Below, one piece after another: positions 10,066 to 50,232 of a stretch of 64,000 bases of DNA. The notes beneath the pieces were generated by a model. That model saw nothing but the letters and a program-made list of their open reading frames with translations, had not been told where the DNA came from and made no database searches. Source of the stretch: a virus; the IMG/VR virus record IMGVR_UViG_3300047560_002412, positions 1-64,000 of that record; one strand, given 5' to 3'. A program made the position numbers and the translations under genes. Every line of letters begins with the position of its first letter. The stretch's first letter is position 1.

Positions 10066-10650
10066 ATGACAAAATAGATTGAATATCAATGTAAGGACCT
10101 AGTGTTCCATTTTAACAAAAAACACTTAGAAGACGCCACAATTCCTATGTGGGTCGTTAAAAGCCATGGTGTAACATTTTATGTAAATCACGTTACCGCA
10201 GAAATACCATGGACAACCAAAGAAACTCCCGACAACGAACATACCAAAGGCAGTCTTAAATTTAAGAATTGCAAGCTCTCTATTGACAGAGAGAATTGCG
10301 CTACATTAACTAAAATTGGATTTTTGGATAGAAACTTACCACATCCAAAATTAGTGGTAGCTCGTATCATTGCTAGTAACGGAGGAGAATTCCATCAGGC
10401 ATTACTGCGGGGAGAGTTTCAACACAGCAAGATTAAACATATTGTAGGTTCTTGTAGCAGCGGATTTATTGTCTGTGATCTTTTGGACAAAAACGAGTAT
10501 CTTGTAGCCGCTTTAAAACATGGCAATAAGTTTCGAGTTATGAAACCAAATGAATCTTACTATCAGGCATATGAAAACACAGCAGAATGGATTGAAGAAG
10601 CCGATTATGAAGAATATGACGATGAAGAACTTGACACAAATGATGTTTGA
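10066..10650 (+). CDS. Hypothetical protein with in-frame UAG at codon 4 (MTK*IEYQCKDLVFHFNKKH...)
   Basis: AAGGA SD then ATG 10066, TAG 10075-10077, frame continues into ORF 10102-10650. Confidence 0.7.
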
Positions 10651-10664
10651 GTGTTAAATATAAG

Positions 10665-10975
10665 TTATTGCTGTATGAAGCAGATAGAAATGTGTTCTGG
10701 ACGGCGGTTCGATTCCGCCCAGGTCCACCAAAAGAATTCTTCATCCTGTATAGAGACAGACAAGTGCTATAGACTATACTAAAGAGTTCTTTTGAGGGGC
10801 CTGACAAGGTTTCGACAGGGCAAGGAGTAAGGAAGTGGACAGCACGGGAATGTGAAACCCGTTAGGATTGGGGTTACCCGGTCGTAGAAGCAAAACAAAG
10901 TAAACGCAAACGATACACGTTTCGCATTAGCCGCTTAAGGCTTTGGGTAGCTATACCTCGAAACAGAAAATAGCT
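10665..10975 (+). ncRNA. ssrA: Circularly permuted two-piece tmRNA, tag (A)ANDTRFALAA
   Basis: T arm and CAGGTCC-A-CCA end at 10730 precede GGGCCTG...TTTCGAC at 10797 (G3-U70); tag frame 10906-10938. Confidence 0.92.
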
Positions 10976-10976
10976 C

Positions 10977-11005
10977 AAAATGGCGTCTTTTGACGCCATT
11001 TTTTA
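10977..11005 (+). terminator. Intrinsic terminator
   Basis: AAAATGGCGTC-TTTT-GACGCCATTTT plus T run. Confidence 0.85.
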
Positions 11006-11133
11006 TTGCATCTTTATATTCTATGCTATATACTTGCTAATGATCAGCGTTAATGCTGATTATTTTTTGTCGTGTTGTTATTGGTTTAATACAGAAAGTT
11101 TTTAACACACGATCACACATAAGAGGAAATTAT

Positions 11134-43593: not shown

Positions 43594-44169
43594 ATGGAGC
43601 ATCGTGTGAAAAAAATTGAGGATTTCAATGCTGAAGATCGGATTGACCTAAGATTACTTGAAAAAGGTACCTTTTACCTAAACGGTGAAATTAATGAAGA
43701 TTCCGTGGGGGAATGCATTAAATGGTTAATTTACGAAAATTTAGATTCGGCTAAAGATAAACTTTTAACTCTTTACATCAATAGCACAGGTGGGGATTTA
43801 TATCAAGCATTTGGCTTAATTGATGTAATGAAAGCTAGTCCGCATACAATTCGAATTATTGGGCTTGGTGCTGTTATGAGTGCCGCTTTTTTAATTTTTG
43901 CCAGCGGAACAAAAGGACACAGATATGCTGCCAAACATACAAGTTTCATGTGTCATCAATTTAGTGAAACTACAGAAGGCAAATATCACGATATCAAAGC
44001 ATCTATGAAAGAAAATGAAATCTGCAATGAAAGAATGATTGCCATTTTGAAAGAAGCAACTGGTCTCGCTCCGTCCAAAATTAAATCCAAACTACTACCT
44101 GCCAGTGATGTGTACTTGACAGCCGAAGAGGTTTTGCAGTATAATATAGCTGATAGCATATTAGTCTGA
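43594..44169 (+). CDS. ClpP-family protease subunit
   Basis: LYINSTGG, MSAA (Ser), FMCHQ (His), D.YLTAEE. Confidence 0.88.
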   Translation: MEHRVKKIEDFNAEDRIDLRLLEKGTFYLNGEINEDSVGECIKWLIYENLDSAKDKLLTLYINSTGGDLYQAFGLIDVMKASPHTIRIIGLGAVMSAAFLIFASGTKGHRYAAKHTSFMCHQFSETTEGKYHDIKASMKENEICNERMIAILKEATGLAPSKIKSKLLPASDVYLTAEEVLQYNIADSILV

Positions 44170-44176
44170 AAGGAAA

Positions 44177-44410
44177 ATGATGGAAGTCGTTAGCATTAAT
44201 GTAAAGCAAGACGATCGCAGAAAAGAAGATATGTTAGAAGTACTTGACGTTCTTCGAGACAAAGTTGAATCTGGAGAAATCAAAGAGTTCGTTGCAGCCA
44301 GCATAGATCCAGATGGCGTTGCTAGGATACACGTAGCGGCTTTAGATCTTCCAGGCGGTATTGGATTGTTTGAAATTGGTAAGCACTTACTAATTCAACA
44401 ATCAGATTAA
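44177..44410 (+). CDS. Hypothetical protein
   Basis: AAGGA SD. Confidence 0.65.
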   Translation: MMEVVSINVKQDDRRKEDMLEVLDVLRDKVESGEIKEFVAASIDPDGVARIHVAALDLPGGIGLFEIGKHLLIQQSD

Positions 44411-44449
44411 AATGTTGCAAAAAAGCCACATTATAACCCGCTTTTTCTC

Positions 44450-44562
44450 TTGACATATAAATAAAAAGACAATATAATAAGTTTATTGATTGTGCAGTTC
44501 TCTACTTAATTTTTCCAGGTTTACCAAAAGAGGTTGACAAGAAGGCTAAGTAGTTGTACAAT
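44450..44562 (+). promoter_or_regulatory. Two tandem sigma70 promoters upstream of the tRNA array leader
   Basis: TTGACA-17-TATAAT (44450-44478) and TTGACA-17-TACAAT (44534-44562). Confidence 0.85.
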
Positions 44563-44608
44563 TGATACATGCGTTAGAGATAATGCAAAAAAGGAAAAAC
44601 TGAAACAA

Positions 44609-44749
44609 ATGAAAACTACATCGTTACAAAGACAATTTAAACATATAGCCCAGATGGGAGGCTTTGCGCCCTCATATTGGTCAGTATGTGAGATTAGTCT
44701 ATCTAATGATCGTACACCAGGAACGGGGTCCGGGAGGACGCTAGTGTAA
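44609..44749 (+). CDS. Putative leader peptide (46 aa)
   Basis: AAGGA SD; ends inside the attenuator-like structure. Confidence 0.6.
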   Translation: MKTTSLQRQFKHIAQMGGFAPSYWSVCEISLSNDRTPGTGSGRTLV

Positions 44750-44810
44750 ACAAAATACACAGGCAAACTTCAAAGGACCCCAGGATTAAAAACCCTGGGG
44801 TTTTTGTTTT
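44725..44810 (+). terminator. Terminator with competing antiterminator
   Basis: ACCCCAGG/CCTGGGGT plus T run; GGGGTCC (44725-31) complementary to GGACCCC (44775-81). Confidence 0.78.
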
Positions 44811-44824
44811 GTAGGATTTTAAAA

Positions 44825-44986
44825 ATGGAATTTGAAGATTTTAGAAAACAAAGAAATGCCAAGTTTTTAGCCGAACACGAACTTGACGATGATCAACTTG
44901 AAAAGTTGATAGAAGAAAAGTTTAATCGTGCTCGTGCTTATCACCAGGCATTAAACAAGCAAGAAGACGAAGTAACACTCGACTAA
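44825..44986 (+). CDS. Small hypothetical protein
   Basis: AGGA SD, 53 aa. Confidence 0.55.
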   Translation: MEFEDFRKQRNAKFLAEHELDDDQLEKLIEEKFNRARAYHQALNKQEDEVTLD

Positions 44987-45225
44987 TTGCAAAGTGTTAA
45001 TAGGGAACGCGACCCTGCAGGGCACTCTAAACATCCTGCTACTAATGTGGGCGGCCTACCGGATGGTAAGTCTAGGGCGATAACCTAGATGCGTAAAAAG
45101 GTAGCGTAGTAAAGCAGATTGGCTCCTTCGGGAGGTCTGCCAGACGTCAGTCTGTTTTACTACACACTTTCTATTCGCTCCCTTGACGAGCGTCTAAAAT
45201 CATAGAGGAGAGTGTTACACATTTT

Positions 45226-45314
45226 GGATCGTATTCCCTACGGCGGTCTGTAAAACCGTTGCCATTAATATGTAGGGTGGCGGCAGTTAGGTTCGATTCC
45301 TTTACGGTCCACCA
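45226..45314 (+). tRNA. Non-canonical tRNA-Tyr(GTA)-like RNA lacking D arm
   Basis: Acceptor stem plus ACCA, CTGTAAA loop, TTCGATT loop. Confidence 0.6.
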
Positions 45315-45370
45315 AAAATGTTTGACAAATTTATCTGTAGATGATATAATAAGTTTGTTGAATAAGATTT

Positions 45371-45454
45371 GCCCGAGTGGAGAAATGGTATACTCAGGAG
45401 ACTTAAAATCTCCCGTCGAAAGGCATGCCGGTTCGAGTCCGGCCTCGGGTACCA
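45371..45454 (+). tRNA. tRNA-Leu(TAA)
   Basis: Cloverleaf, CTTAAAA loop, CCA. Confidence 0.93.
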
Positions 45455-48027: not shown

Positions 48028-48126
48028 GCCTCTGTAGCTTAATGGTAAAGAAGCGAGCTTATACCTCGCCAAAGCACAGGCCAGATAAGCCTGAGTGTGC
48101 AGGTTCGAGTCCTGCCAGAGGCACCA
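48028..48126 (+). tRNA. tRNA(TAT) (Ile anticodon) with long variable arm
   Basis: GCGAG-CTTATAC-CTCGC; about 29 nt extra arm. Confidence 0.75.
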
Positions 48127-49344: not shown

Positions 49345-50232
49345 TTAAGGGCAGTTTATTGTCCTGTAGGCGGCTTGCCGTCTACAAAGAATAAGTGAGG
49401 TGACTCACCCAAAGCTAGAATGCCTACATACTAGCGCCAGCAATGGTTCATGTAAACAAGCCTGCTCACTACCGCGAGGTAGCGTTCACTGATAAGACCG
49501 GTGGATGTAACAGCAAAGCTGATGTAGTGGAAAGAACGTTTGCTTACAAGCCCGTAAGGGGAACTTGAGTGAATGGAAAGTAACAGGTGGTGCTGACTTC
49601 ACTACAAAACCAATCAGTCAACTGGTATGAGAAAGGGTAGTGTATTGGTCCGAAGGGTCGCTCCTAAGGGCTCGTATGCAATGTTAATGGAAGGTGGAAC
49701 ACGTTGCGAAACGTTGTTACATCGGTCGTGAAACATCACTGAGTAGCTCGCGAGGCAAAAGGTATGTGGTGAGTTGTATTTTGTATTCCAAAAGAGTATG
49801 AAGCAACTGAGGCAGCTCATCGCGGTAGGTTCAATGTAGATCAATGGTAGATCGTCTGTCTTTTAAACAGAATGCTGTGGGTTCAAATCCCATCATTAAC
49901 AAAAATGCAAAGACTGCCTCGGTTATGTGTGAAAAGTATCTAACGCTCGGGGCGCAAGCCAACTGAGTCTGATAAAGCTCGCAAGGTGATATCAGTTTAT
50001 ACTGGAAGTTTCGTAGTTCGCAAGACTTAATGGCTCGCAAGGTCAACGGAATAGATGGTGTAGAGTAGCATATAACGACAAGCCTAATGCCTGGCTTTAA
50101 AAACGGCGATACTGCAAGTAGACTAGGTTACATGGTAACATGAACTTAGTGGATGTCTAGAGAACGTATACTCGCAAGGTGTACGGTAATGCTAGAGGTA
50201 CTTGTGGGAGAGATGTAATCTCAGTCCTCCAC
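49345..50232 (+). ncRNA. GOLLD-like large structured RNA (about 890 nt)
   Basis: No credible ORF, many GNRA hairpins (CGCAAG/CGCGAG), GGTGGTGCTG, 3' GTAATCTCAG, nested tRNA, located in tRNA array; 5' boundary approximate. Confidence 0.72.
49829..49901 (+). tRNA. tRNA-Lys(TTT)-like element nested in the large RNA
   Basis: D arm GATC/GATC, TCTGT-CTTTTAA-ACAGA, TTCAAAT loop; bulged acceptor, no CCA. Confidence 0.65.

Follow-up and report, generated by a model that had tools for sequence, protein, structure and literature searches.

Positions 44534–44810 of the viral DNA analysed here probably hold a genuine, conserved leader-peptide attenuator, a new family carried by uncultivated giant freshwater phages that stands at the head of a translation-related RNA cluster. 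The window, as we call the whole stretch, is the first 64 kb (64,000 nucleotides, nt) of the 128.7-kb virus record IMGVR_UViG_3300047560_002412, which is estimated to be 35% complete; coordinates are those of the window, and the element, its promoters and the genes that it would gate lie on the plus strand. The reading is carried by a short open reading frame (ORF) that is open in all 54 distinct versions of the element, by an intrinsic terminator and a competing helix that both covary, and by a leader stop codon placed at the tip of the anti-terminator in 54 of 54. This is the leader-peptide attenuator architecture that an initial annotation, made from the sequence of the window, had proposed.

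Large phages carry dozens of transfer RNA (tRNA) genes, transfer-messenger RNA (tmRNA) and other ornate RNAs, and to our knowledge the control of such clusters is hardly known. The window itself contains 34 ordinary tRNA genes, a tRNA with the anticodon CUA, a permuted tmRNA and a GOLLD RNA. An attenuator at this site would mean that a phage tRNA and RNA cluster is headed by a conserved regulatory device whose parts are clearly defined; a search of the full-text literature, with subscription journals outside its reach, yielded no account of phage tRNA genes preceded by a leader peptide or attenuator, and there is no Rfam model of one.

Leader frame, terminator and competing helix

The relatives of the element are uncultivated viral contigs, as no cultured phage matched in a distant blastn search with positions 44100–45400 or in a tblastn search with the 53-aa protein encoded downstream, both against 50,697 phage records. 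A nucleotide pattern built from the leader ORF retrieved 19 loci, and a profile of the small downstream protein, an ascertainment independent of the leader, retrieved 61. Pooled with the window, these gave 55 distinct versions, of which L045, cut by a contig end, was dropped to leave 54. A covariance model of the 3′ domain finds one match in each of the 54 and none in five unrelated loci, and shows the leader element to be single-copy in the whole 128.7-kb record. Synteny via the upstream ClpP gene was also tried as a route to relatives and given up: only L001 is collinear, and L002 and L004 have different downstream genes.

The leader ORF, which the initial annotation had noticed as a 46-aa frame, extends from the ATG at 44609 to the TAA at 44747–44749 (44609–44749, 46 codons plus stop), and its product ends ...PSYWSVCEISLSNDRTPGTGSGRTLV. 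In all 54 distinct relatives the corresponding frame starts with ATG, is open over 36–54 codons and ends just before the terminator; the other two frames contain 3.3 and 4.9 stops on average and are open in none. In the 19 pattern matches, the spacers between the Trp codon (44678–44680 in the window) and the Asp-Arg block that follows measure 12, 18, 21, 24, 30 and 33 nt, all multiples of three. A profile of the peptide matches 298 protein clusters in public metagenomes, every one unnamed. On this comparative evidence, the leader ORF is a real coding frame. An antisense ORF at 44521–44766 was rejected as a candidate gene, being not conserved (at least 60 open codons in just 9 of the 54).

Behind the stop codon lies an intrinsic terminator (44776–44810) composed of the stem GACCCCAGG / CCUGGGGUU (44776–44784 / 44794–44802), a conserved A-rich loop of 9 nt (44785–44793) and a U-run, U5-G-U4 (44801–44810). 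Our consensus scan for promoters and terminators missed it because loops of at most 8 nt were allowed. The terminator is present in 55 of 55 distinct loci; 98.7% of alignment cells are paired across 53 distinct rows, double changes occur in six of the nine pairs, and none of 500 shuffles reached the covariation score.

The terminator competes with a second structure that begins within the leader ORF. Strand A, GGGGUCC (44725–44731), pairs with strand B, GGACCCC (44775–44781), to form helix P1, and strand B overlaps the 5′ arm of the terminator, the two sharing CCCC. The initial annotation had described a terminator whose 5′ arm is complementary to the leader, and these are the strands in question. 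Inside P1, the anti-terminator (inner part 44733–44771) continues with P2, GGAG / CUUC (44733–44736 / 44768–44771), and an apical hairpin, P3 (44740–44764), which carries the leader stop. The 242-nt transcript of the window has a minimum free energy (MFE) of -73.2 kcal/mol, compared with -49.8 ± 4.4 kcal/mol in 200 shuffles (z = -5.3, no shuffle as good), and its MFE structure contains the GGGGUCC:GGACCCC helix in place of the terminator. The A:B duplex alone has a z-score of -4.4 against shuffled upstream sequence.

All 54 members have strand A inside the ORF, and P1 is paired at 98.4% on a model-based alignment, which leans towards structure and on which slid controls are 20–67% paired, and at 93.5% on a MAFFT alignment; its covariation score was reached by 0 of 500 shuffles. 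The first P1 pair is A-U in 28 rows, G-C in 21 and G-U in three, and the same C/U position tolerates wobble within the terminator, where U-G occurs 20 times. The most divergent members form wholly different and longer P1 helices, with 9 contiguous pairs in L021, pairing at 14 of 15 positions in L055, 9 + 6 pairs in L078 and pairing at 12 of 13 positions in L099. When partners were swapped among members, cognate A:B duplexes summed to -983.1 kcal/mol against -887.2 ± 10.4 kcal/mol for permuted ones (0 of 5000 permutations as low), and the cognate duplex was better than the mean non-cognate one in 46 of 54, the eight exceptions being mostly family-consensus strands. Judged by this co-evolution, the anti-terminator helix is under selection. 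Folding and covariation in relatives had been suggested in the initial annotation as a check on its mutually exclusive hairpins, and across the 54 versions both the terminator and the competing helix covary.

Other parts of the 3′ domain are less uniform. RNAalifold on 30 relatives returned the terminator and a GAUC:GGUC pairing that never varies, so that no covariation can be read from it, and on a codon-guided alignment of all 54 it returned no structure. An outer helix, CCAGG (44717–44721) with CCUGG (44794–44798), is present in the MFE structure of the window and changes together in the L040 group; it was set aside as an unproven candidate, since it is not kept in L071, L091, L021 and L034, whose sequences we read. 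The large 9-nt terminator loop has the consensus AYUAAAMAC and is found in all relatives, and the single-stranded AACUUCAAAG just 5′ of strand B is likewise conserved; both exceed the needs of a plain terminator. Rfam returned no T-box or other family at the leader, with E-values up to 1 considered for the window and up to 0.1 for eight relatives; the sole match in the region is to the S15 leader, at 23 bits and E = 0.11, below the 39.5-bit threshold.

At the 5′ end, the leader promoter TTGACA-17-TACAAT (44534–44562) agrees with the sigma-70 consensus at 11 of 12 positions and is the consensus promoter of the initial annotation; all 54 relatives have a promoter scoring 10/12 or better in the 160 nt that precede the leader ATG. 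A tandem promoter, TTGACA-17-TATAAT (12/12), occupies 44450–44478 in the window, and in some relatives a second promoter recurs approximately 70–85 nt further upstream. Since these promoters follow an E. coli-like consensus, the switch is directly testable in reporters. The MFE structure of the transcript places a 5′-terminal stem-loop, H1 (UGCGUUA-GAGA-UAAUGCA), at 44570–44587, and alignments read by eye have a hairpin of differing sequence at this position in relatives. A Shine-Dalgarno (SD)-like AGGA (44592–44595) stands 13 nt 5′ of the ATG, and an SD-like word occurs between -20 and -4 in 36 of 54 relatives. In eight of the relatives without such a word (L037, L055, L066, L073, L078, L081, L097 and L099), a promoter scoring at least 10/12 has its -10 box ending 6–10 nt before the leader ATG, implying a leaderless mRNA with transcription starting at or next to the start codon. 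These eight leaderless-type versions have neither the 5′ hairpin nor an SD.

Proposed switch and rival explanations

The energetic balance between the two folds suggests a default. Considered alone, the anti-terminator hairpin has a mean energy of -23.3 kcal/mol and the terminator one of -14.4 kcal/mol. With each fold enforced in the full-length RNA, the two differ by a mean of only -3.0 ± 2.7 kcal/mol over the 54 members (0.1 kcal/mol in the window), the anti-terminated state being lower in 48 of them. In nascent RNA ending at strand B, A:B is part of the MFE structure in 54 of 54, so read-through should be the default without ribosomes. The position of the leader stop adds a geometrical constraint: in all 54 members it falls within the apical hairpin, in the 5′ arm or the loop, 11–28 nt after the first base of strand A and 12–29 nt before strand B. 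With this placement, a terminating ribosome has had to open all of the 5′ half of the anti-terminator, which it occupies, and never covers B.

We consider a ribosome-mediated transcription attenuator the likely explanation of this anatomy. Transcription from the sigma-70 promoter would give an RNA headed by the 46-codon ORF, whose last third doubles as the 5′ half of the anti-terminator (strand A, the P2 strand GGAG and the 5′ arm of the apical hairpin, with the stop at its tip). If no ribosome stands on this half as strand B emerges from the polymerase, A and B would pair, blocking the terminator and allowing read-through into the gene of an approximately 55-aa protein, a structured non-coding RNA (ncRNA), a tRNA-Tyr-like gene and tRNAs. 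If a ribosome has translated into the leader or to its end, it would hold the 5′ half, leaving B free for the 3′ arm of the terminator, and transcription would stop at about 44805–44810. Expression of the cluster would thus be coupled inversely to the promptness of leader translation. That translation leads to termination, and lack of translation to read-through, is the direction that this anatomy somewhat favours. We infer that ribosome position decides the fold, as well as the direction of the switch and its physiological signal; the cluster is probably switched by how well the infected cell translates. That tRNA transcription is gated by translation status, as the initial annotation had put it, can reasonably be inferred from the arrangement of sequences.

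Several points weigh against this explanation. Tandem regulatory codons, by which classical amino-acid attenuators are recognised, are absent from the leaders, in which a single Trp codon is invariant. When a ribosome has the stop codon in its A site, strand A of the window is 13–19 nt upstream of the P site and so lies at the rear edge of that ribosome, not within it; the blocking of A:B by a terminating ribosome is a steric argument. The small local hairpin proposed initially, GUCC-GGGA-GGAC, which with two outer pairs (44725–44742) can hold strand A, does exist in the window (-9.1 kcal/mol for the segment 44725–44744), but it reaches -3 kcal/mol or lower in only 32 of the 54, falls short of this in the other 22 and is absent in several divergent members. 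Neither a conserved pause hairpin nor an anti-anti-terminator (1:2 structure) could be established in relatives. Further consensus promoters at 45322, 49004, 54419 and 55378 in the tRNA array of the window mean that the attenuator cannot be the sole control of the array. Metatranscriptome contigs from four RNA runs, which represent relatives only, cover the terminator and the ncRNA; they cannot show transcript ends or exclude DNA, and were not used as evidence, nor was a 277-nt contig that joins terminator and ncRNA across a divergent small gene. Finally, for an ORF that served as a passive 'spacer', the length of the leader and the conservation of its peptide are both unusual, a hint of some further layer, for instance arrest or activity of the peptide itself.

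The peptide has two contrasting parts. Met1 and one Trp are invariant in all 54 leaders, and in the block represented by Asn-Asp-Arg-Thr-Pro in the window (44705–44719), Asp is kept in 50, Arg in 48, Thr or Leu in 50 and Pro in 45. Trp precedes Asp by 6–14 codons and Pro by 12–17 residues; 5–15 codons follow the Asp-Arg-x-Pro block (9 in the window), and the stop is TAA in 51 leaders and TAG in three. The Asp-Arg block is always read in one frame, though one alternative frame there is open, whereas strand A is read in two frames across lineages, as Gly-Ser or Arg-Val, and is thus constrained as RNA and not as peptide. This difference hints at selection on the peptide at the block. Conservation is lacking in the C-terminal third of the peptide, where two reading frames are used.

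The body of the ORF is also structured as RNA. Synonymous sites are nearly frozen (AGA 30/30, ATA 30/30, GCC 37/37, ACA 39/39, GAT 49/50), and in the MFE structure a long irregular hairpin, H2 (44617–44714), spans the ORF from codon 3 to the Asp-Arg-Thr codons. All 18 diverse relatives that were folded form a comparable long hairpin, with the Asp-Arg codons paired to codons 3–6 and the UGG of Trp to an upstream CCA. The H2 pairs of the window, mapped on 30 relatives, are 60.7% paired, compared with 36–45% when slid. As far as sequence comparison goes, the peptide and RNA constraints on the ORF overlap and are inseparable. A rare-codon sensor was rejected, as the frozen codons AGA, CGT, ACA, GAT, AAT and CAA are the common ones in the phage; the minor codons of the leader (ATA, CTA, GCC, CCC and GAG) fall in RNA helices. 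Also rejected was the Tyr codon before Trp as a sensor for the first tRNA, with tRNA-Tyr coming first behind 11 of 29 Tyr-Trp leaders and 14 of 20 others.

A refinement of the ribosome-mediated attenuator would retain the same RNA switch and let it be decided by a programmed stall, in which the nascent peptide, with its invariant Trp and, 9–14 residues on, Asp-Arg-Thr/Leu-Pro, would act within the ribosomal exit tunnel when triggered by a small molecule, a factor or a tRNA, as in TnaC- and SecM-type leaders. We regard such an arrest-peptide sensor as doubtful, although much of the peptide conservation speaks for it: no leader among the 54 and no database match among the 120 examined lacks the Trp, Asp-Arg-x-Pro occurs in 119 of the 120 best matches, and the frame of the block is fixed where that of strand A is not. 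The distance from Trp to Pro roughly spans the tunnel from its constriction to the peptidyl-transferase centre, comparable to W12–P24 of TnaC (PMC10941005). Strand A begins 16–29 nt after the Asp codon, so a ribosome with Asp in its P site leaves strand A free in every member. The same measurement from the Pro codon gives 7–20 nt, a range that straddles the leading edge of the ribosome, and a stall at Pro would therefore act oppositely in different members. The variable spacing between Trp and Asp is hard to fit to a rigid tunnel sensor; moreover, L055, L066, L073, L081 and L099 retain the whole RNA switch without Asp-Arg-x-Pro, and L078 has the Asp without the Arg or the Pro. Since the codons of the block are frozen (GAT 49/50, ACA 39/39) and paired in H2, RNA structure could explain much of its conservation.

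An improbable alternative is a self-contained unit with a terminator of its own, either a small gene or a small RNA of dual function, whose output is the 46-aa product or an RNA of approximately 240 nt; A:B would then be a post-transcriptional structure of the mature RNA, serving its stability or action in trans, and not a co-transcriptional switch. The element does have its own promoter and an efficient-looking terminator, a conserved and widespread peptide (the 298 clusters) and A:B in the MFE structure of the terminated transcript, and trans functions of attenuator RNAs and leader peptides are described for rnTrpL and peTrpL (PMC6614838, PMC7968998). Yet formation of A:B removes 4–5 pairs of the terminator, and a stability element would not require the near-equal energies that the two folds keep in 54 members. 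In every one of the 54 the stop codon sits at the tip of the anti-terminator, and the C-terminal third of the peptide is unconserved and read in two frames. The downstream gene begins 73–84 nt after the stop, too close for a promoter to fit in between, and in 38 of 51 loci the 520 nt behind the terminator contain no strong promoter, so that the downstream genes need read-through. Least probable is a switch made of RNA only, in which H2 or the anti-terminator binds a ligand, a tRNA or a protein such as the 53-aa product and the ORF is incidental: the strong structure of the leader (z = -5.3), its frozen synonymous sites, the conserved 9-nt A-rich terminator loop and the tRNA-related cargo would suit it, but the ORF is kept in 54 of 54 through many indels and with matching start signals, no Rfam family, T-box included, was found within the E-value limits given above, and the downstream protein is so acidic that its sequence does not suggest RNA binding.

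If the ribosome-mediated attenuator is taken further, the element may be a phage-borne sensor of host translation capacity that turns on a rescue cluster, with Trp...Asp-Arg-Thr-Pro as a new arrest module tuning the sensor; we offer this only tentatively. Where ribosomes or charged tRNAs are limiting, perhaps through tRNA cleavage as a host defence or through demand from an AT-rich giant phage that exceeds the tRNA supply of its host, the leader would be translated late or never and the anti-terminator would form. The cluster switched on would then supply the approximately 55-aa factor, a structured RNA and replacement tRNAs headed by tRNA-Tyr. With the switch accessible to reporters, it becomes testable whether phages tune the translation machinery that they carry to how the host is translating.

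The presumably gated cluster and its surroundings

The initial annotation had placed the element in front of a tRNA and ncRNA array. Same-strand tRNAs do lie downstream in 49 of 52 relatives scanned (L029 was not scanned), and in the three others the available sequence ends soon after the small gene; a 53-codon gene comes first, however, followed by an ncRNA and a tRNA-Tyr-like gene. The first tRNA downstream is tRNA-Tyr in 25 relatives, tRNA-Ile in nine, tRNA-Trp in five, tRNA-Asp in four and another in six. Among the 51 loci with enough sequence, 38 have no promoter scoring at least 10/12 within 520 nt after the terminator. In the window, tRNA-Leu at 45371 has its own 12/12 promoter (45322–45350), and here we take the attenuator to gate the small gene, the ncRNA and the tRNA-Tyr-like gene and merely to add to transcription of the array.

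The first gated gene (44825–44986) encodes a 53-aa acidic, helical protein of no known family. Of the first 14 loci, 11 have a gene for an acidic protein of 53–60 aa that begins 73–77 nt past the leader stop; in L021 the next ORF, unrelated and of 42 aa, starts 84 nt past it, and a search for ATG starts found no next gene in L023 and L036, the latter having a divergent homologue that starts with TTG. The family comprises at least 1205 clusters at 90% identity in public metagenomes, and searches of Pfam, PHROG and the ESM Atlas returned no family or lead. A structural model has two helices with a mean predicted local distance difference test (pLDDT) score of 78 and no Foldseek match in the PDB. 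One source label within the family, 'ribosomal protein L21', looks spurious. The profile was also run against bacterial genomes, where it gave one partial match of 20 residues in a Longimicrobiales metagenome-assembled genome, which we judged spurious, and thus no clue to the host.

The second gated element (44990–45224) is a conserved, covarying ncRNA without an Rfam match. It measures 160–300 nt in relatives, among them L039 (1363–1600) and L050 (1303–1540), and RNAalifold on 12 relatives predicts 42 pairs, 25 of which have compensatory double changes. Its invariant single-stranded motifs include AAACAU, GGGCGG and GGAUG. This ncRNA and the approximately 55-aa protein, with its at least 1205 clusters, can be flagged as likely translation-related products. 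Next, at 45225–45311 and before the promoter at 45322–45350, stands a tRNA-Tyr-like gene with the anticodon GUA and an 8-bp acceptor stem; its anticodon loop reads CUGUAAA, its 3′ end is CCA, and an ordinary D arm is missing. The gene escapes ARAGORN, and its sole Rfam match, tRNA-Sec at 26.9 bits, stays below threshold. A counterpart lies at the 3′ end of the segment 1366–1671 of L046, and the close relative L001 has a conventional long-arm tRNA-Tyr at this place.

Upstream, a gene for a protease of the ClpP family (Pfam E = 1.9e-31) and, behind it, a 77-aa ORF occupy positions 43594–44410, a pair that is kept together in L030, L036 and L037. The upstream neighbours differ in other relatives, suggesting that the module from leader to tRNAs moves as a unit. 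A tmRNA gene lies directly 5′ of the leader promoter in L055 (366–792) and L050 (1–89). Elsewhere in the window, the permuted tmRNA, with the tag ANDTRFALAA, is found at 10638–11029 and the tRNA with the amber-reading anticodon CUA at 7387–7461. The GOLLD RNA (49766–50227; Rfam, 221.5 bits) lies within the tRNA array and has a tRNA-Lys (49830–49901) embedded in it. A 96-nt tRNA at 48028–48123 is recognised by Rfam (59.7 bits) and not by ARAGORN, and may have an insertion or a long arm.

Comparison with known leaders and attenuators

The mechanism that we propose is known from bacterial amino-acid operons; what would be new is the different cargo, the lack of a codon run and the long conserved leader peptide. 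In the attenuators of the trp, his, leu, thr and pheA operons, the leader stop is placed so that a finishing ribosome blocks the anti-terminator. One published account describes pheL (PMC3082878). The phage element shares with these classical attenuators a promoter-proximal short ORF, an anti-terminator that is mutually exclusive with an intrinsic terminator, and the placement of the stop. It differs in having a single invariant Trp instead of a codon run, in the length (36–54 codons) and conserved peptide of its leader, most of which folds into one long hairpin, and in that no conserved 1:2-type pause or anti-anti-terminator structure was found in relatives. In ribosome-free RNA, the phage element is predicted to favour read-through, in contrast to the super-attenuation of classical attenuators, and its cargo is a small protein gene, an ncRNA and tRNAs instead of a biosynthetic operon.

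The initial annotation had likened the Trp and Asp-Arg-Thr-Pro residues to the arrest motif of TnaC. In TnaC, W12, D16, I19 and P24 stand at fixed spacing with P24 as the last codon before UGA, and free Trp blocks release factor 2, the stalled ribosome hiding the Rho utilisation (rut) site from Rho (PMC10941005). Both leaders encode a peptide with conserved Trp, Asp and Pro ahead of a site of termination. In the phage family, Trp and Asp are separated by 6–14 codons, compared with 4 in TnaC (PMC10941005); a further 5–15 codons come after the Pro, 51 of the 54 leaders stop with TAA, and a conserved intrinsic terminator stands where TnaC depends on Rho. The kinship does not hold up, and on the sequences compared the resemblance to TnaC is superficial. 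With T-box leaders the element has in common an anti-terminator/terminator switch in a tRNA-related setting, but it has neither an Rfam T-box match nor an evident specifier loop or T-box bulge, and it does have a conserved, presumably translated ORF.

In the pyrBI and pyrE attenuators, a closely following ribosome prevents the terminator hairpin from forming, so that tight coupling of translation to transcription leads to read-through. The phage element resembles them in what would be read out, namely the distance between polymerase and first ribosome and not the supply of one amino acid. Unlike in pyrBI and pyrE, the ribosome would here remove the anti-terminator, and tight coupling would lead to termination.

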